A stretch of DNA of 64,000 nucleotides, taken from Eledone cirrhosa. Taxonomy: Eukaryota. The stretch covers positions 98,456,001-98,520,000 of the forward strand of contig OZ024740.1 of assembly GCA_964016885.1 (NCBI GenBank). Direction: 5' to 3'. Below, piece after piece: positions 25,742 through 62,902 of this stretch. The position numbers and the translations under genes are program-made. Each line of letters begins with the position of its first letter. Within the stretch, counting starts at the first letter, position 1. Below the pieces are notes generated by a model. That model was not told where the DNA came from and searched no databases. It saw nothing but the letters and a program-made list of their open reading frames with translations.

Positions 25742-27360
25742 TAGCAACTAACAGTGCTGCGATCGAATGTGGCTTTTTAGCCCAGCCAATGATCTAAAAT
25801 ATCTTGCACAGAGTCGGCAACCAAAACATTCACTGGGAATAGTCGGCTGTGGTTGGAGTTCGTGTACTTTTGCATGTCGCTTGAGCCCTCCTGCTGATTT
25901 ACATTCTCTACCACATGTTTGGCAAGCATGATGCGTAGCATCTCCAACAGCAGCCTGGTAGTCAACCACTGGTCTTACTTTATGACTGCGAAGATGACTT
26001 TCGAGTCCAGCTTTGCTTAGGCAGAGTCTCGCACAGACGCTGCATGTCAGCACCATAGGAGGACCCTCGCCGTCTGGAAGTGCAACAGCAATGCCCTTCC
26101 TCACATCCCGCTTTACTTTCTCGTGTGCGATTCGAGATGCCTCAAAGGCAACTTTTCCCTCATATACAGTCTTTCTCCATTTATTACGATCAGCAGCAAT
26201 ATTGTCCCATGTATCAGCAGAGATGTTAGCGTCTTTCAGAGAGGCTTTCAAGGAATCCTTATACCTCTTTTTTGGTTTATGTGGTGGTCGTTTTCCTTTA
26301 ACCAACTCTCCATAAGAGAGTTGTTTTGGTATTCTAGAATCCTTCATCCTGGCAAAGTGACCACTCCAACGGAGTCGTTGCTTAAGCACAAGAGCTTCTA
26401 TACTGTCACACATAGAGCTTTCCAAAATCTCGACATCACTGATGTGGTCCCTCCAGTGAACGCCATGGATCCGTCTGAGACACATCTGATGGAAACGCTC
26501 CAATTGCTTAAGGTGGTGTCGATATGTGACCCAGGTCTCGCAGGCATAAAGAAGACAAGAGAGTACACATGCCCTGTACACCTTTACCTTTGTCCTCCTG
26601 CATATGTCTCGCCGACCCCAGAGTCGCCTTTCTAGCTTTCCGAAAGCATCACTTGCTTTCCTAATCCTAAGTGAGATTTCACTGTCAAGGTTGCCGTATC
26701 GATTGACAGTGCTTCCCAGGTAGACAAACTGATCAACCACTCCAAGTCGTTTGCCATACACATAGATGTTTGGTTCAGTGTACTGCTTACTAGGGGCAGG
26801 TTGGTACATGACGACGGTTTTCTTGAGACTGACAGTCAAACCCAGGGCAGTGCAAGCGTCAGAAAATGCATTCAAAATGTGCTGCATATCACTCTCTGTG
26901 TGCGCTACAAGATGGCAATCATCTGCATACAAGAGGTCTCTTATGATTGATGTAAATACTTTTGTCTTCGCAGCAAAGCGCCTGATGTTAAATATGCTGC
27001 CTGAGGTTCGATATCGGATGTAAACAACATGCTCGCAATTCCTGAATGCAATACAGAAAACCATTGCAAAGTATATGGCTAACAGGGTTGGTGCTGGAAT
27101 ATCCCGCTGTTTCACTCCATTTTTTACTGAGATAGGCTCCGACATGTTACCTCCGACATTAACCCAAGCCTTCATGTCGTCATGGAAAGACCTAACTAAA
27201 GCAAGGAACTTATCAGGGCAACCAAGTTTCTGGAGAACCTTCCATAATGCATCTCTGTTGACAGTATCGAAAGCCTTTGTCAGATCGACAAAAACCTGAT
27301 ACAGATCTAAGCCGTGTTCAATGCACTTCTCCTGGAGCTGTCTAGCTGAGAAGATCATAT
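25396..27360 (-). mobile_element. 5'-truncated RTE/BovB-type LINE nested in the hAT element; 3' UTR filled with microsatellites
   Basis: Uninterrupted RT ORF; RTE-like terminal motif TGGCCATACTCGATAACGAGGGGGCAGCCATCAT at 25396-25430 (minus strand). Confidence 0.88.
25748..27359 (-). CDS. RTE reverse transcriptase (N-terminally truncated, open frame) with three C-terminal C2H2 zinc fingers
   Basis: DMIFSARQLQEKC, FVDLTKAFDTV, GVKQRDIPAP, LYADD, FVYLGS, LRWSGH; then CSVC..H..H, CQTC..H..H, CRLC..H..H. The first ~18 aa of the ORF call are microsatellite. Confidence 0.85.
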
Positions 27361-27562
27361 CATACATACATACATACATACACACACACATATACACACA
27401 CACATATATACACACACAGGGCGGTGTTTTTGTTTGATGAAGTTGAGAACCTGGTCAGCTTTCAGCCAGAAGTGTGGTATTTAATCTCCCTAGGTAATAA
27501 AATCTGGCGACAAAAATGTTCTCTCACCAAAAAAAGAAGACATAGATAATATCAACATTTTT

Positions 27563-28799: not shown

Positions 28800-29153
28800 T
28801 AAGAAAAATATGGGGAGAAGAATACTGCATGGTTGCACATGGATTACATATTATCAAATTAGTCCCTCATCAGTGATTTGCCAACGATCATTGGTATTTC
28901 ATCGCATTAAAAATCATATACCTCACGTTGGTGCGAGCAATAACTAAAATAAGTTATTGGGACAAATGAAACGCGTAAAGCGAGTGAGACAAGTAAACAA
29001 CACGAAGGGAAGGCTAACCGAAGATGGGAAGAAAAAACAAGCAACATGGTTATTCGATCAGTATAAACTGGGTGAATTCATGAGTGTGTAGGAAACAGAC
29101 CTTTCGCTGTGAGTGAGATGTGAGAAAGAAGGAAAATCTGACCCCTAGCGAAC

Positions 29154-36788: not shown

Positions 36789-39163
36789 TCACAAACCCGA
36801 CAACCCCGGCCGCCCCATTGTCTCCGCTTGCAACTGCCCCACTGAACTCATCTAAACCTTTCTTGACTCCATCCTCGCCCCCCTCGTCACCACCCTCCCC
36901 TCATACATCTGCAACACCAACCACGCCCTTCGCCTATTTAACTCCTTCACTTTCCCACCCGGCCCACAGCCCCTCCTCTTCACCCTAGATATCAAGTCGC
37001 TTTATACTGTCATCCCCCACGCTGAGAGCCTACGTGCCCTCACGCACTACCTCGACCTTCGCCCCTCCCTCATCCTTCGCCTCGCCAAGCTGGTCCTCAC
37101 CATAACTACTTCTCCTTCTCGGGTGAGTTTTACCAACAGGTCATGAAGGTAGCCATGGGCACAGGAATGGGCCCAAACTATGCCAACCTTTTTGTTGGCC
37201 ATGTTGAGGTCCAAATCTTTGCCCAGTACACCGGCCCCACGCCCGAACTGTATGGTTGTTACATCGACGGCTGTATCGGAGCCACGACCCCCACCCGAGA
37301 ACAGTTTGACTCATTTCTCTCATTCTTCTGCTCCTTCCCCCTCCCTCCACTTCACCACCTCTATCTCCACCACCCACGTCCACTTCTTAGACATCTCCAT
37401 CGCCATCGACCACTCCCACCACTCCCTCGTCACCTCCGCCTTCTTCAAACCCACCGACTCCCACTCCTATCTCGACTTCACCTCCTTCCACCCTACACAC
37501 ACTAAACACTCTATTCCCTATTCCCAACTCCTCAGGATCCGCCGCCTCTGCAGCCGAGATGCTGAATTTGAGTCCCAGGCCCTTTCCCTAGTCAGCCATT
37601 TCATCCGCAGAGGTTACCATCTTCACCCTATAGACCCACACTCCCCCCGGCCTGAACTCCCCACCTCTATTCCTTTAGCCTTCGACCGCCCTGTTCCTCC
37701 CTCTCACCCCCCCCCACACACACATATCCCCCACTAAGACACTCCTTCTTTTCACTGCTTACCCCACAACTAACAATACTAACACCCCAACCCCACCCCG
37801 ACCACCCTCCCCCAAGTAACAATACTAACCCCCCCCTATCACGCACACACACCTGTACATATGTACACGCACTCACACTATCCACACACCTTACTACCAC
37901 CACTAACCCTCACCCACACATCCACTCCAACCACCACACAACTAATACCACTAACATCCACCTGACCCCACGCACACGAACACACACACGCACCCACACC
38001 CACTTACACCACCCACTCTACACACCTTACCACCACTGACCCCCACTAACACACCCGCATTCAACCCTTTCCCCACCACCAATAAACGAACACCCACTAA
38101 CACCCCCTTCTCCACACACACAGACATCCAAACACGCACACACACACACCAGTACACTACACTCCCTCCACCGTCCCCCATACCTTTTCTCTCCATCTCC
38201 CCGCTCCACCCACACCCCTTCACACACACACACACACATCCCACTAACACCTCTACGAATACACACCCCATCCCCCACCTGACCACTCCCACTCCACCTT
38301 TCACACCTACCAATCCTCTCCCCTGTCCACCGCACCTCCGCACACACTGACACACTGACTTTCTCCACCTGCCATTCTCCTCTACTGCTGCTATGCCTTC
38401 TCCTGCCTTGACCCTCTGACCACTTCCTGTTGCGCGCGCACCCACATCTCCCCTCTTCCGACTACCACAACCAACGGATTACACACCACCGGCCATCGTT
38501 CCCACTATCCACTCCATAACATGGAAAACATTCGGCACCACTTCACACCCTCTACGGAACTACCTTAGGAACTTACCCACGGACATACACTCACAATTTC
38601 TTTCTCGAACCACGCCACCTACATCCACACAAATTATAAACACCATCACACACGTGCGTACCCCAACATATATACACACTCAGCCTCCAGAATCCTCCCC
38701 CCTTCCCCACCCCTCTGACCCCACCCCCCACACAAACACCTTTCCTGAACATGGAACCTCGTTCTTCCCCCAACTCTCACATTCACATACACACACACGT
38801 ACACCTACACACATAAACAAACACCACTTTCAGCCCTCCCCGCTCGGACACCCCACCTCCCTCTCCCCATTCAACCCGCCACCACGCCTACACGCCCCAC
38901 ACCCTTCCACCACTTGTTTATCTTCATGCTTATTCTTATTTTTATTTGTACCCCGTCCACCGTTTTCCTCCGTTTCCTATCTCCCCCCCCCATTTTTATA
39001 AATGTCTCTCCACCACTCCCCCACACACCCTCGGAACTCTCTTCCCACCCACTTTTCTCCTGAAGAAGGGCTTATGCCCGAAACGCCCCCCACTCTCAAG
39101 AGCGTGAATCTAATAAACCTTTGTTTATACTGCCTCTCTGTTTTGTTCCCGTTCCATTTTTCA
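36789..39163 (+). mobile_element. 5'-truncated Penelope-like (probably Neptune-type) retroelement, decayed, between (TA)n tracts
   Basis: HKPDNPGRPIVS, TLDIKSLYTVIPH, VAMGTGMGPNYANLFVG, YIDG, FLDISI, FKPTDSHSYLDFTSFHP..SIPYSQLLRIRRLCS..RGY; HHR-like motif at 39060; AATAAA at 39112. Confidence 0.9.
39057..39090 (+). ncRNA. Partial PLE minimal hammerhead (CTGAAGA-AGGGC-TTAT-GCCC-GAAACG); cleavage strand degenerate
   Basis: Core boxes and stem II visible; no clean UH or stem I partner. Confidence 0.55.
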
Positions 39164-39186
39164 ATATATATATATATATGAATTAA

Positions 39187-39277
39187 TTTAGTCCTTCATC
39201 AGTGATCTTCCAACCTTCTTTGGTATTTCATCGCTTTAACAACCATATACCTCTGGCTGGTGCGAGCAACGGCTAAA
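39187..39277 (-). ncRNA. Candidate non-canonically permuted K-turn hammerhead, copy B
   Basis: TTTAGCC GTTGC TCGC A CCAGCC AGA GGTA TA TGGTT GTTAAA GCGA T GAAA TACC AAA GAA GGTTGG AA GATCA CTGATGA AG GACTAAA. Confidence 0.65.
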
Positions 39278-39831
39278 GAAAGTCATTTGGACAAGTAAAT
39301 AGGGGGAACGAGCGAGACAGTAAACAATCAAAGATGGTAATGCAACGAAAAGTGAGGAAGAAGGAGTCAAGTCCCTGAAATCGATGAACATATTTTCTGT
39401 GAAATCGTGGACGAGAGAGAATAAAGACCATCAAACCTAGTCGACATGTGAGTAAGGAAAGAATTTCGCACAGGTCAAACGGGAGGAAGAAGGTATCAAG
39501 TCCCTGAAATCGATGAATATAAGTTCTGTGAAATCGTAGGCGAGAAGAGAATAAAGACCATCCGACCTGGTCGAAGTGTGCGTGAGAAAAGAATCTCGCA
39601 CAGGTCAAACGGGAGGAAGTAGGAGAGGGCGTAGCAGAGAGTGAGTGAGTGAAAGTGTGAGGAAGTGGCTTACAGAGAGAGTGATTGGTAGAGGGGGTAA
39701 AAGGAAATGAGAGATACAGAGAAAAGGGGAAGCAGTAAGAAAGAAACAGACGGGTCACAGCCGAGGAAAATATATATGAATATGAAAACATGGTGTGCTC
39801 CGTGGTTGCAAATGGGTTACATATGAATAAA

Positions 39832-39922
39832 TTTAGTCCTTCATCAGTGATCATCCAACCTTCATTGGTATTTCATCGCTTTAAAGACCATATACCTCTG
39901 GTTGGTGCGAGCAACGACTAAA
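39832..39922 (-). ncRNA. Candidate non-canonically permuted K-turn hammerhead, copy C
   Basis: TTTAGTC GTTGC TCGC A CCAACC AGA GGTA TA TGGTC TTTAAA GCGA T GAAA TACC AAT GAA GGTTGG AT GATCA CTGATGA AG GACTAAA. Confidence 0.7.
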
Positions 39923-40365
39923 GAAAGTCGTTGGGACACGTAAATAGGGGGAATGGGCGAGACAGTAAACAATCAAAGATGGTAATGCAACGAAAAGTGA
40001 GGAAGAAGGAGTCAAGATGAAAGACTAAATTTATTCATATGTAACTCATCTGCAACCATGCAGCACACCATGTTTTCATATTCATATATATATATATACA
40101 CACACACACACATATGTATATTTGTTTGTTTATTCATTTGTTTCATATATAAGTGCCTGCTACAGGACACAAACTGTTTCATTCATTTAAAATCATCAGT
40201 GTAAATATATTTCTTTTTGAAATAAAAAAGACAAGAAGAGAAGGAGGGATAGAAGAAGTAGAAGTTGAATACGAAGGAGGTGGAGGCCACTACGCTTATT
40301 TGGATAAAGACCCGCCTGCAGGAATGATATGGAGTGGGTTTCAATCTCAATCAATGATTAACGAA

Positions 40366-47789: not shown

Positions 47790-50700
47790 GGCTAACATAA
47801 CCCCATCTCCCCCCCGCGCCCCACCGCTCCCCCCTCCAAACGCAATCCAAAACTTCAGAGTTGGTACCATGAATGTAGGCACCTTAAAGGGTCGCTCTAA
47901 CGAGGTTGTAGAAATGCTTGAACGTAAGGAGGTCGATGTTTGTTGTATTCAAGAGACCAGGTGGAAGGGTGGGTCTGCAAGATTCATTGTGGGTAAAAAA
48001 CGATGCTATAAGCTTTTCTGGGTGGGAAATGACAACGGGCTGGGTGGAGTAGGAATCATGGTAGCAGAAAAGTGGGCAGATAAGATAATAGACGTAAATA
48101 GAGTGAACGACAGAATAATTAAAATAAGACTTGTCCTCAATAGAACTACGGTGACAGTAATATCTGCGTACGCACCCCAATCCGGACTGCCCGGCACTAT
48201 AAAAGACAGATTCTATGAGACACTGATGCTCACTACCTCCCAAATAACCAACAGTGACTATATAATTATTGCAGGCGACCTAAATGGCCACGTTGGACAA
48301 CATTGTGACGGCTACGACGGAATCCATGGAGGCTATGGGTTTGGTACTAGAAATGAGGCAGGCTCCAGAATCCTGGAATTCTGTGACGCAAATAACCTAA
48401 CTATCTGTAACACTAACTTCAAAAAACGAGACAATCACCTGATCACCTATAGATCGGGGGAACACACAAGCCAGGTAGATTATCTCCTTACCAGAAGACG
48501 TGACAGAGTGTCTATTGTAAACACTAAATCCCTCCCCCATGAAGAATGCACCTCCCAACATAGACTGATAATTAGCGACCTAATAGTCAGGACGAGACGT
48601 ACTAGACAGCAGAAGAGGATTATCCTCAGGAGAAAAATATGGAAGCTAAAGGACCCCACAGCCAGAAATAAATTTAAAAGCATACTACTTGATACTTTCA
48701 ACAGTAAGGAAGAGCAATTAGAGTCGTACAATATAGAAAAACAGTGGGAATTTCTGAAAGCAAACCTGCTGATGGCGGCAGACGAAGTCTATGGCTGGAG
48801 CAGGCCTGTAGGCAGGAGGAGAGTAACATGGTGGTGGAACAGTAAGGTGGAGGGGTCAATTAAGGCCAAAAAGCAAGCTTGGAAAGTATGACGGGATGGG
48901 TGAAGTAGAGAAGACTATCAAGTGGCCAGGAGGGAAGCTAGGAGACAAGTGTACTTCGCAATAAGGGAAGCAGAGGAAAGAAAGTTCAAGCATGTTCTAC
49001 AAGGCGAGGACCAAAAACGTGAGGTGTTCAGGATTGCTAGGAAATGTGTCAAGGAAAACCGTGATATTGTCGGGGAGAAGTGTGTACTTAATGATGATGG
49101 CGTACTTGCCATCACCGACGCTGATAAGAAGGTAGCTTCGAAGTGTCACTACGAAAGGCTACTAAATGAGGAGAATAAATGGGAGAAAGACAGTCTCCCC
49201 CACATCGACCCAATAGAGGGACCAGCAGTGTTAGTCGAGGGTAGTATAATAAGTAAGGCAATCAAAGATATGAAGACGGGTAAGGTAGCTGGGACTTCGG
49301 AAATAGTTGCTGAGATGCTGAAGGCATCTGGAACGGTGGGACACACCATGGTCACCCAGATAGTAAACCAAGTCGTACATAATGGGGTTTTCCGAAGGAC
49401 TGGCGTAGCAGCATCATCATTAACTGTTATAAGGGTAAAGGAGATGCCTTAGATAGGAGTAACTATAGAGGCATTAAATTAATCGACCAGGTCATGAAGG
49501 TCACGGAAAAAGTAATAGCGCAACTAATCAGAGAGAGAATTGATCTAGATGAAATGCAGTTCGGGTTTGTGTCAGGCAAAAGTTCCACAGACGCTCTTTT
49601 CATTGTACGACAACTACAGGAGAAGCACCTAGCTAAAAGTAAACCCCTATACTTACCTTTTGTCGACTTGGTGAAAGCCTTCGACAGAGTCCCCCGTTCC
49701 ATTATCTGGTGGTCTCTTAGAAAACTAGGTGTTGACAAATGGCTTGTGAGAGCTATACAAGCCATGTATAAAGAAACAGTCAGTAAGGTTAGAATTAACA
49801 ACGAATATAGTGAAGAGTTTAGCGTAAAAGTTGGTGTCCACCAGGGCTCTGTTCTTAGCCCCCTACTATTTATTATTGCCCTTCAGGCTATAACAGAGGA
49901 GTTCAAGACCGGCTGCCCATGGGAACTCCTATACGCAGATGATCTAACGCTCATAGCTGAATCAATGACAGAACTAGAGAAGAAATTCCAAACATGGAAG
50001 CACGGCCTAGAATCAAAAGGCCTTAAAATTAACCTGGCTAAGACTAAAGTTCTAGTTTGTAGGAAAGAAAATAAGGCAGCGGTCCCATCTGGGAAATGGC
50101 CATGCTCAGTGTGTAGGAAAGGCGTAGGTAGAAACTCCATTTTATGTCCCAAATGCAAAGTATGGGTGCATAAAAGATGTAGTGGGATCACAGGTAAGCT
50201 AACTAAGAACATAGATTTTACATGTGGCCGGTGCTCTGGTGCAATAAGTAGCAGCAAGTGCCCACAAAATACTAGCTCCTTCAACTGCGCAGAGGGTTCT
50301 ATAGAAATAGTGGACAGCTTCCGTTACCTGGGTGACAAAATCAGCAGTGGGGGAGGGTGCTCTGAAAGTACAGTAGCTAGAGTCAGAACTGGATGGAAAA
50401 AGTTCAGAGAGCTTATACCACTATTAGCCGCTAGAGGGTTCTCCCTAAAAATGAAAGGCAGGTTTACGATGCCTGCATACGAACAGCAATGCTGCATGGC
50501 AGTGAGACCTGGGCATTGTGTGCAGAGGATATACGCAGACTAGAGAGGAACGAAGCTTGCATGCTCCGCTGGATGTATAATAGTAATATACGTGAACGGC
50601 AAAGCATAAACGAACTAAGGAAAAAATTAGAAATAAGAGGAATCAGATGTTGTTTACTCGAGAGAAGGCTACGTTGGTATGGTCACGTCATGCGCATGAA

Positions 50701-61590: not shown

Positions 61591-62601
61591 CTATTGGGGT
61601 GATAACCCGTTTAGTTTTGGTTTAAATTTGTTAAGGAATAGATTTTCTTTGTTTATTCTTTGTTGCTGTGTGAACGAATCTGAGCACTTGTAGAAGGGGA
61701 AGATTTTAAAGTTGGGTAGTGTCATTCCTGTGCAGTTCGCAATATGGCTGCTCAAGGGGATTTTTCTTGTGTTGGCGTCCCGGATTTGTTGGCGGTGGAT
61801 GGCCATTCTTTTGCGTAATGAGGTTTCCGTCTGTCCTATGTAGTTGTGTTTGCACCCACCGCAAGTTATTGCGTAAATCAAGTTCTCCGAGTTGCAGGTG
61901 AAATTGTTTTTTACTGTAAATGTTTGGCCATCTTTAAATGTAAATTTGTGTCCTTCAGTGAGGTAGAGGCACGTTCCACAGTTTTTTCTACCACATTTGG
62001 TAACTGTAGGGTTGAGGATTGGTTTGGGTATATTTGGTCCAGTGAGAATGCGTTTTAGTGATTTGGGTTGTCTTTTACTTTTAAGGATCTTGTGTGTTTC
62101 AAGAATAGACTTCATTTTTACATCTTTAAGTAGGATGCGGAGGTTTTTGTGTAGGTGATCAAACATTTCGGTATTTCTGGGGTTGAAAGTGGGTACATAT
62201 GGCAGGGTGTTGAGTGTGGTTTTCTGTTTTGGATTGTTAAGTTGATGGGGATTTAGGTGTTTTGCCCTGTCTATTCGATTGTTGATTATTTCAAGTGGAA
62301 AGGCTCTTAAGATAAGGGTGTCTTTTAGTTCCTTTAGTCTTTGCTCCCGTTTAGGTGGATCTGATACTATGGTACATATACGTTTGGCCAAATTGTAAGG
62401 AGTGTTAAGTTTTGTATGTTTTGGGTGACTTGATGTGAAAAAGAGGTATTGCTTGGAATCTGTGGGTTTATAGAATATATCTGTATCTAATTTCCCTTCT
62501 ATTACAGAGATGAGAATATCCAAGAAGGCTAATTCCTTGGGATTGGATTCCATTGAGAATTGTATGTTATTATCTATGTTGTTTATCATGTTTTTAAACA
62601 T
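61591..62601 (-). CDS. PLE polyprotein C-terminal part: RT motif 7/thumb, Cys-rich linker, GIY-YIG endonuclease (open frame, 5'-truncated)
   Basis: LAFLDILI, TDIFYKPTDSKQYLFFTSSHP, CGRKNCGTC, NLIYAITCGGCKHNYIGQT..LRKRMAIH..KENLFLNKFKPKLN. Confidence 0.9.
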   Translation of the reverse strand: MFKNMINNIDNNIQFSMESNPKELAFLDILISVIEGKLDTDIFYKPTDSKQYLFFTSSHPKHTKLNTPYNLAKRICTIVSDPPKREQRLKELKDTLILRAFPLEIINNRIDRAKHLNPHQLNNPKQKTTLNTLPYVPTFNPRNTEMFDHLHKNLRILLKDVKMKSILETHKILKSKRQPKSLKRILTGPNIPKPILNPTVTKCGRKNCGTCLYLTEGHKFTFKDGQTFTVKNNFTCNSENLIYAITCGGCKHNYIGQTETSLRKRMAIHRQQIRDANTRKIPLSSHIANCTGMTLPNFKIFPFYKCSDSFTQQQRINKENLFLNKFKPKLNGLSPQ

Positions 62602-62902
62602 AGGTGTAAGTGCACTAAATCCCTTTCTATCATCTCCCCTCTCCTACCGACCACAGGGAGATATATGTATGTATATTGCTTCCACCTCCTCACTGACCAG
62701 CAGCTGGCCATTGCTAAATCTGACCTTTATAAAATAACCCACTCCCCCAAACAACTCCTCATTCACTACCAGAAAGGCACACAGCAGTCAACTTGCTGCT
62801 ACCAAGATGAAAACTACTATTAAATCCCACACTGAATTTTATACTTGAATTTTCAAATCTCAAATTTTAACTCTTCTTATTATTAATTTTCTTAATATTA
62901 AT

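Follow-up and report, generated by a model that had tools for sequence, protein, structure and literature searches.

A predicted hammerhead ribozyme with non-circularly permuted strand order in a high-copy, non-coding repeat of Eledone cirrhosa

Predicted ribozyme copies and mobile elements in the window

The DNA analysed in this study, referred to as the window, is a stretch of 64,000 nucleotides (64 kb) of contig OZ024740.1 from Eledone cirrhosa, whose 3.0-Gb genome is rich in microsatellites. Its minus strand carries three predicted ribozyme copies (28867-28900, 39196-39229, and 39841-39874), and the pattern GAAATACC followed by CTGATGA gave 3 matches in the window against 0.01 expected. 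Copy A lies approximately 10 kb from copies B and C, which are spaced 645 nt apart. The original prediction held that CTGATGA, GAAATACC, GGTATA, TCGC, and GCGAT are unchanged in copy A, and this can be seen directly in the sequence. The insertions carrying these copies and the RT-bearing elements around them are as follows.

28801 to 29152, minus strand: copy A, a single-ribozyme, 5'-truncated insertion of an approximately 528-nt subfamily-A unit, flanked by two (TA)n runs (96% over 373 nt versus a subfamily-A tandem locus)
39164 to 40016, minus strand: subfamily-C insertion with two ribozymes (copies B and C), that is, more than one unit
40016 to 40097, plus strand: inverted partial copy of the 3' end of the subfamily-C element, at its 5' side (89% over 84 nt)
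36790 to 39150, plus strand: broken Penelope-type element (PLE) with RT-like frames
61594 to 62643, minus strand: Penelope-type RT fragment of 350 aa
196 to 2265 (plus), 25751 to 27454 (minus), and 49383 to 50540 (plus): LINE-like RT fragments

The predicted cuts at 39891/39890 and 39246/39245 in copies B and C bound one full 645-nt monomer, and the same insertion holds a 130-nt internal duplication (39354-39624). Judging by its sequence, the inverted piece at 40016-40097 is a Penelope-type inverted insertion structure. The Rfam search of the window returned no match at the gathering score and weak noise of the snoRNA and miRNA types by E-value; at the copy A motif, no Rfam hammerhead was found by either measure.

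PLE clades other than Naiad are present in the window, and a Pfam search assigned no family to three PLE fragments. The element at 36790-39150 ends in a 3' canonical-order minimal hammerhead core (approximately 39060-39107, with G at the cleavage position) and meets copy B tail to tail at a common (TA)n run. At a locus elsewhere in the genome (L110), positions 1-1090 correspond to a PLE 3' end, which has a GIY-YIG-like C-terminal region and a canonical-order core of its own; (TA)n and then an independent subfamily-A0 insertion come next. A link of the ribozyme element to either of these two PLEs was weighed but not taken up, since both are set apart by (TA)n and have canonical-order cores of their own.

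Strand order and covariation of the predicted fold

Read on the minus strand from 28968 to 28859, copy A consists of a hairpin, TCGCA, CCAACG, GGTA-U-A, TGATTT, TTAA, TGCGA-T-GAAA-TACC, a 6-nt linker, CGTTGG, and AAATCA-CTGATGA-G-GGAC. The motif had been placed at 28859-28947; the core does lie inside these limits, and the structure extends upstream to approximately 28963. Its predicted parts, all on the minus strand, are listed in 5' to 3' order.

28960 to 28963: 5' strand of helix Pa (GTCC), whose predicted partner, GGAC after CUGAUGA-G, closes the ribozyme (MFE fold)
28938 to 28959: hairpin P0, CAATAACT / AGTTATTG (double changes at 5 of 8 pairs, 92.6% paired)
28932 to 28937: position X (C, 28937), followed by the stem II 5' strand that comes from upstream (Pb, TCGCA; a double change at 1 of 5 pairs in this genome)
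28926 to 28931: 5' strand of helix Pd (CCAACG), the counterpart of the type-SGC "interaction" helix between stems I and II (double changes at 5 of 6 pairs)
28916 to 28922: block S, with stem III strand GGTA, U16.1 (28918), and H17 = A (28917)
28907 to 28916: stem I 3' strand TGATTT and the 4-nt linker TTAA leading to stem II (double changes at 6 of 6 stem I pairs)
28893 to 28906: block G, with stem II 3' strand TGCGA, Y11.1 (28901), GAAA (28900-28897), and stem III strand TACC
28881 to 28892: 6-nt linker AATGAT and Pd 3' strand CGTTGG
28862 to 28879: block C, with stem I 5' strand AAATCA, CTGATGA (28873-28867), the next base G (28866), and Pa 3' strand GGAC

Stems I and III abut the core and pair, as the hammerhead class requires, and the core itself (CUGANGA, GAAA, and U-H with A15.1-U16.1) is present in all 18 rows of the alignment described below, for which the searches required CUGANGA and GAAA. 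The predicted cut of copy A falls after U-H, between 28917 and 28916. The 5' strand of stem II and the interaction strand both lie upstream of block S, joined to stem III by 3 nt, and the strand after CUGANGA pairs upstream in Pa. With the 5' strand of stem II predicted to be supplied from upstream, the CUGANGA block is divided and would be closed by a predicted four-way junction. The unconstrained MFE fold of copy A also contains P0 and Pa, and its nested MFE (z -2.36) includes competing local hairpins.

The fold was evaluated in 18 gap-free natural copies that were hand-picked as colinear lineage representatives (8 H-like, 1 with a replaced 5' part) and from which the structure had itself been derived. 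In these rows, 89.9% of cells were paired, compared with 31-49% in slid controls, and 15 of 23 pairs showed double changes; double-change cells numbered 82 as opposed to 34.9 after shuffling, a value reached by none of 500 shuffles. Pairing was nearly complete in stem I (96% of cells, double changes at every pair) and stem III (99%, double changes at 2 of 5 pairs). Stem II (Pb) was paired in 81% of cells with one double-change pair, and it contained no significant covarying pair in this genome under the tree-based null given below. RNAalifold independently found Pd and stem III. In the 12 rows used for the upstream helices, P0 and Pa jointly were 89.5% paired with double changes at 6 of 12 pairs, which 0 of 500 shuffles reached, and Pa was paired in 83% of cells, its sequence differing in H-type copies as judged by eye. 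These two helices replace a terminal helix, TTAGTT/GACTAA, that had been proposed in the original prediction: it was 76% paired, 79 of 500 shuffles reached this level, it showed one double-change cell, and TTAGTT is the 3' arm of the better hairpin P0, with GTCC/GGAC forming Pa.

As plain shuffles ignore relatedness, an R-scape-like null that permutes substitutions along the tree was also run. The observed pairing of 91% compares with 56±5% under this null (maximum over 300 replicates, 71%), and the 20 additional Watson-Crick pair types that arose by double substitution compare with 7.7±2.2 (maximum 14). The three of 2,850 column pairs that scored highest for covariation were all predicted pairs: one belongs to stem III and two to stem I, where E over all pairs was 0.017, the lowest value that this null can give. 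The C-G to G-C swap in Pd ranked fifth. When only the 22 proposed pairs were considered, E was 0.004 for Pd pair 12-52 and 0.0009 for pair 17-44 of block G. Both stem III and Pd are crossed by stem I, and all three covary; therefore, no nested fold explains the signal, and none holds stem I together with stem III and Pd.

These data bear on the reading that the conservation and compensation are a by-product of repeat-family ancestry, or that the motif forms a nested structure or one resembling a box C/D snoRNA. The number of independent lineages is small, and Rfam snR66 gives a weak match of 25 bits against a cut-off of 65. However, none of the 300 replicates of the tree-based null reached the observed values, subfamilies F and H no longer have the box-C-like letters, and the helices that covary cross each other. 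The reading as a box C/D RNA was rejected, and this explanation as a whole, already largely refuted, is regarded as very improbable.

The compensatory changes claimed for the three copies were then followed into the subfamilies, where compensations persist in the subfamily majorities. The double swap in Pd holds at this level, with G-C in 26 of 32 A copies and C-G in 13 of 14 A0 and 43 of 48 C copies, and a C.C intermediate at the swapped pair occurs in 5 of the 32 A copies. The CCAGCC wobble of copy B, in contrast, is private to that copy (G in 1 of 48 C copies). In stem I, the changes at pair 5 (U-A in A, C-G in C) and pair 3 (A-U in A, G.U in C) are of subfamily level, whereas copies B and C owe their 5-bp stems to private mutations, the majority form of subfamily C being 6 bp long (TGGTCT/AGATCA). 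The extension of stem II stands, its extra pair being A-U in A and A.A in C and D. Besides the C.C form at the swapped Pd pair, stepwise intermediates include U.G and C-G forms of stem I among the matches listed. Taken with thousands of copies and distant subfamilies, the data support selection on a pseudoknotted hammerhead-like fold between subfamilies. The earlier observation is thus partly confirmed and its interpretation partly supported; the upstream hairpin, the split CUGANGA block, the relationship to type SGC, and the link to Naiads are new beyond it.

Concerning the catalytic core, the U16.1-A15.1 pair and the TAA of the linker are invariant in 18 of 18 rows. In a set of 143 colinear copies, from which copies with indels or truncation were dropped and a few mis-registered rows were left out of the majorities, position H17 is occupied by A, C, or U, and by G in none. 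N7 varies among T, C, and A, and the other core bases, which the searches required, are fixed between subfamilies. The proposed covariation of pair 10.1-11.1 was not borne out, as G.U, A-U, G-C, and A.C all occur there and only 10 of 18 rows are paired. Instead, the base after A9 complements 11.1 in 10 rows and the upstream X does so in 8 (both in 1, neither in 1), so that 11.1 keeps a partner in 17 of 18. These alternating partners would correspond to one step of branch migration in the four-way junction. In the young subfamilies the base of stem II is non-canonical and X faces 11.1 as C.U or C.C, which suggests dependence on the base after A9. In the three subfamily-G copies examined (L182, L184, and L185), 11.1 is without a Watson-Crick or wobble partner (A.C and C.C), and stem III is compensated as GATA/TATC in two of the three.

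A rival reading accepts the fold and its ancestry but takes catalysis to be weak or lost in the young subfamilies, copy A among them, where the structure would be kept as a signal for recognition or packaging by a PLE protein. Subfamilies A, C, D, and G have lost the canonical G-C pair at the stem II base, and copy A has the A-U-A cleavage triplet, which is less favourable than G-U-C in hammerheads. In the available part of PMC7229834, poor self-cleavage is mentioned alongside an axolotl retrozyme ribozyme whose helix II has a U.U mismatch at its base. Against this stand the partner retained by 11.1, the movement of H17 among A, C, and U but never to G, and the restriction of core variation between subfamilies to N7. 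We regard this explanation as unlikely. Cleavage after U-H is predicted with good confidence for the ribozyme class as a whole, and for copy A itself it is somewhat more probable than its failure.

A dispersed, non-coding repeat family

Genome-wide searches, which required the core (CUGANGA and GAAA) and underlie all copy counts and alignments, yielded 9,339 matches to the G and C blocks compared with 5 in the reversed control, and 6,279 matches to the S, G, and C blocks together at fixed spacing compared with 0. A gap range without the canonical spacing gave 48 matches, which comprise insertion variants only. The fetched loci sort into subfamilies A, A0, C, D, E, F, and G and an older, more diverse H group. 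The repeat units are dispersed and non-coding, with one ribozyme per unit in tandem loci, where successive ribozymes lie 445-770 nt apart (one spacing is 1,348). No RT-like ORF was found in the units, nor upstream of the two ancestral-like copies for which ORFs were listed. The H/F-type pattern gave 0 matches in one metagenome scan.

Among the A, C, and F loci, which were partly chosen by queries spanning these ends, the downstream ends lie at fixed distances before (TA)n (approximately 65 nt in A, 17 or 58-67 in C, and 32 or 75 in F), unlike the upstream ends, which are scattered. Fixed 3' and ragged 5' ends indicate that the ribozyme strand would be the RNA strand, which fits target-primed reverse transcription. 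The 40 copies closest to copy A are 94-98% identical to it. Between subfamilies, identity is higher in the ribozyme region than in the unit body for A and C (89/110 versus 252/421) and for A and F (78/110 versus 206/448), and it barely differs for C and F (70/110 versus 258/444). Pairs of ribozymes on opposite strands a few bases apart (G000:C1:26994980-26995054, 29085120-29085219, and 63222161-63222243) are palindromic insertions of the element end.

Based on this evidence, we consider it probable that the copy A stretch is a predicted self-cleaving ribozyme with a non-circular S-G-C hammerhead core, whose stem II 5' strand is supplied from upstream, in a high-copy, non-coding repeat likely of the retrozyme type.

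Relationship to type SGC, retrozymes, and Naiads

Non-circular permutations of the hammerhead were described in 2023 from metatranscriptome, metagenome, and RefSeq sequences with poorly understood hosts, and type SGC was defined there with cleavage and helix-by-helix rescue (Eckert et al. 2023, PMC10085705); in the same work, type CSG was represented by two sequences. The predicted ribozyme shares with type SGC (HRIMA-1) the S-G-C order, the full core, the short linker between stems I and II (4 nt here), an interaction helix joining the distal ends of these stems (Pd here), and a frequently unpaired base after CUGANGA. In the HRIMA-1 alignment, as given in the available part of PMC10085705, CUGAUGA is followed by an extra U, stem II, one base, and the interaction helix. 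The present element differs in that the chain is opened after A9, at the site of this extra U, and closed from the interaction helix to stem III; the stem II 5' strand lies upstream of block S, and the Pa/P0 four-way junction is inserted. Block C is therefore interrupted, whereas Eckert et al. assume it whole (at most 1-2 inserted nt). The host is an animal genome with about 10^4 copies, and cleavage is predicted here, in contrast to its validation for HRIMA-1. As modelled, the ribozyme corresponds to type SGC circularly permuted in such a way that block C is split, and this permutation is new. With the type I, II, and III and minimal PLE hammerheads of the Rfam clan, it shares the CUGANGA, GAAA, and UH core around stems I-III; unlike in types I, II, and III, the strand order is not a circular permutation of theirs, and helices cross. 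The terms "Eukaryota", "Mollusca", and "Octopus" had 0 matches in the available part of the supplement of Eckert et al. (PMC10085705). The openly available literature searched, with PMC13725137 covered in part, contained no prior report of non-circular hammerheads in animal genomes or Naiads, and in it the term "type-SGC" is confined to one paper.

The tethers between blocks are short and conserved (4 nt from S to G, 23 nt from G to C), which speaks to another possible arrangement, a double hammerhead. In it, G blocks would be exchanged between two RNAs or between adjacent units of a tandem, giving canonical type II/III connectivity. Such swapping is formally possible in tandem or circular transcripts, and dimer cleavage is reported for PLE hammerheads in the title of Lünse 2017. 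In addition, the links of 3 and 6 nt that join Pd to the stem III end seem to leave little steric room, a puzzle that is also raised in PMC10085705. On the other side, besides the tethers, HRIMA-1 constructs of approximately 80 nt were cleaved nearly to completion (PMC10085705), and the Naiad records covered in full, in supplement parts 19 and 24 of PMC8557442, carry the motif once each. The double hammerhead is accordingly judged improbable, and more so than loss of catalysis in the young subfamilies.

Turning to the repeat unit, animal non-LTR retrozymes carry type I hammerheads in units of 150-450 bp (Cervera and de la Peña 2020, PMC7229834, in the sections available), and monomer release with circularisation is described for them (PMC7229834; 10.64898/2026.07.22.740005, likewise in part). 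In common with these retrozymes, as presented in the accessible parts of PMC7229834 and Li et al. 2026 (10.64898/2026.07.22.740005), the present family consists of non-coding units in tandem, each with a single hammerhead, is dispersed in thousands of copies, and has a proposed PLE origin. It differs in its non-circularly permuted core and its units of 445-770 nt, and circular RNA is inferred here. The element would thus work like a type-SGC hammerhead in a non-LTR retrozyme, and it fails one defining feature of each.

The following mechanism may be proposed for the predicted ribozyme with its upstream stem II strand. A tandem or read-through transcript would fold the knot, with stem I tied to stem II by the 4-nt linker and helix Pd and with the remaining RNA leaving right after A9 through the four-way junction of Pa, P0, Pb, and the core. 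The RNA would cut itself after U-H (28917/28916 in copy A), giving unit-length RNAs of approximately 520-640 nt, and the released monomers would likely be circularised. A Penelope-like RT/GIY-YIG enzyme acting in trans might then reverse-transcribe from a fixed site downstream of the ribozyme (approximately 65 nt in A), and insertion into (TA)n could yield the 5'-truncated, tandem, and inverted copies. Compensations would have been fixed in successive source lineages, copy A being a single-ribozyme and probably passive insertion. The ribozyme most likely descended from Naiad 3' ends.

In the available parts of Craig et al. 2021 (PMC8557442), Naiads are reported to be without canonical HHRs, flagged only as "HHR_core" or "HHR_half_core", and to prefer (TA)n targets; this targeting, tandem and inverted insertions, and a fixed 3' end are not unique to Naiads there, being also found in Neptune, and cephalopod Naiads are described as inactivated long ago. 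The window element resembles Naiads in all three of these insertion features, and it differs from them in having no ORF (N-terminal GIY-YIG and RT). When the accessible supplement of PMC8557442 was inspected by eye, the split-stem-II SGC fold was seen in the 3' UTR of at least 8 of 54 published Naiad consensus sequences (Ovul, Plae, EuTe, Aacu, and Anas, and, by file order, Obim, Amil, and 2_Movir), with a weaker ninth record in supplement part 8 (2-bp stem I). The contexts inspected were 55 of 62 for CTGATGA, 22 of 23 for CTGACGA, 37 of 43 for CTGAAGA, and 22 of 25 for CTGAGGA, matches broken by line ends being missed. An upstream G pairs with C11.1 in all eight of these Naiads, by eye, and the base after CUGANGA cannot; examples of stem II are GACACC/GGTGTC (Ovul) and GGCCCC/GGGGCC (Plae). 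The C-S-G order was seen in the same way in at least five further records (three from Nippostrongylus, two from parts 15-16).

Octopus Naiad records in this partial supplement share with subfamily A, as judged by eye, the loop of P0 and both linkers of Pd, TGA and A(A/G)TGAT, and the AATGAT letters of copy A recur in the record preceding Naiad_Ovul. Several arthropod Naiad 3' ends (parts 16-19) show CCCC-CTGANGA cores, by eye possibly a further permutation, and bivalve Naiads showed no hammerhead-like core among the passages inspected.

Within the E. cirrhosa genome (G000), three patterns for the Naiad RT motif gave 0 matches, which makes ancestry from Naiads better supported than present-day mobilisation by them. 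Further, cephalopod Naiads are described as long inactive, yet the 40 A copies closest to copy A are 94-98% identical to it, so that the present mobiliser may be another PLE clade. A Naiad-type ribozyme pattern matched 6 times compared with 3 in the control, and 3 of the 6 are degenerate copies of the motif by eye. The loci L246, L247, and L249 hold degenerate Naiad-like versions with stem III strand CCAT, and no coding sequence was found upstream of L246 and L247. Overall, we lean towards the view that many Naiads (in cnidarians, acanthocephalans, crustaceans, nematodes, and cephalopods) carry active SGC/CSG hammerheads, including a new four-strand, split-CUGANGA permutation, and that this ribozyme seeded approximately 10,000 circular-RNA retrozymes in the present genome.

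For the family itself, the subfamily series keeps mismatch and wobble intermediates of compensatory change, the stem II base offers a natural and directly testable pair of forms that would lie one step of branch migration apart, and subfamily G provides a natural test of how far this base matters. The predicted topology lies outside the six-permutation scheme. Searches with type I descriptors, such as those in the available part of 10.64898/2026.07.22.740005, would miss the S-G-C element, implying that ribozyme and retrozyme censuses built on type I-III descriptors may miss a whole class. If true, the reading offered here would place non-circular hammerheads in animal chromosomes, in thousands of copies and with a biological context, and it would offer an answer to why Naiads "lack" hammerheads.
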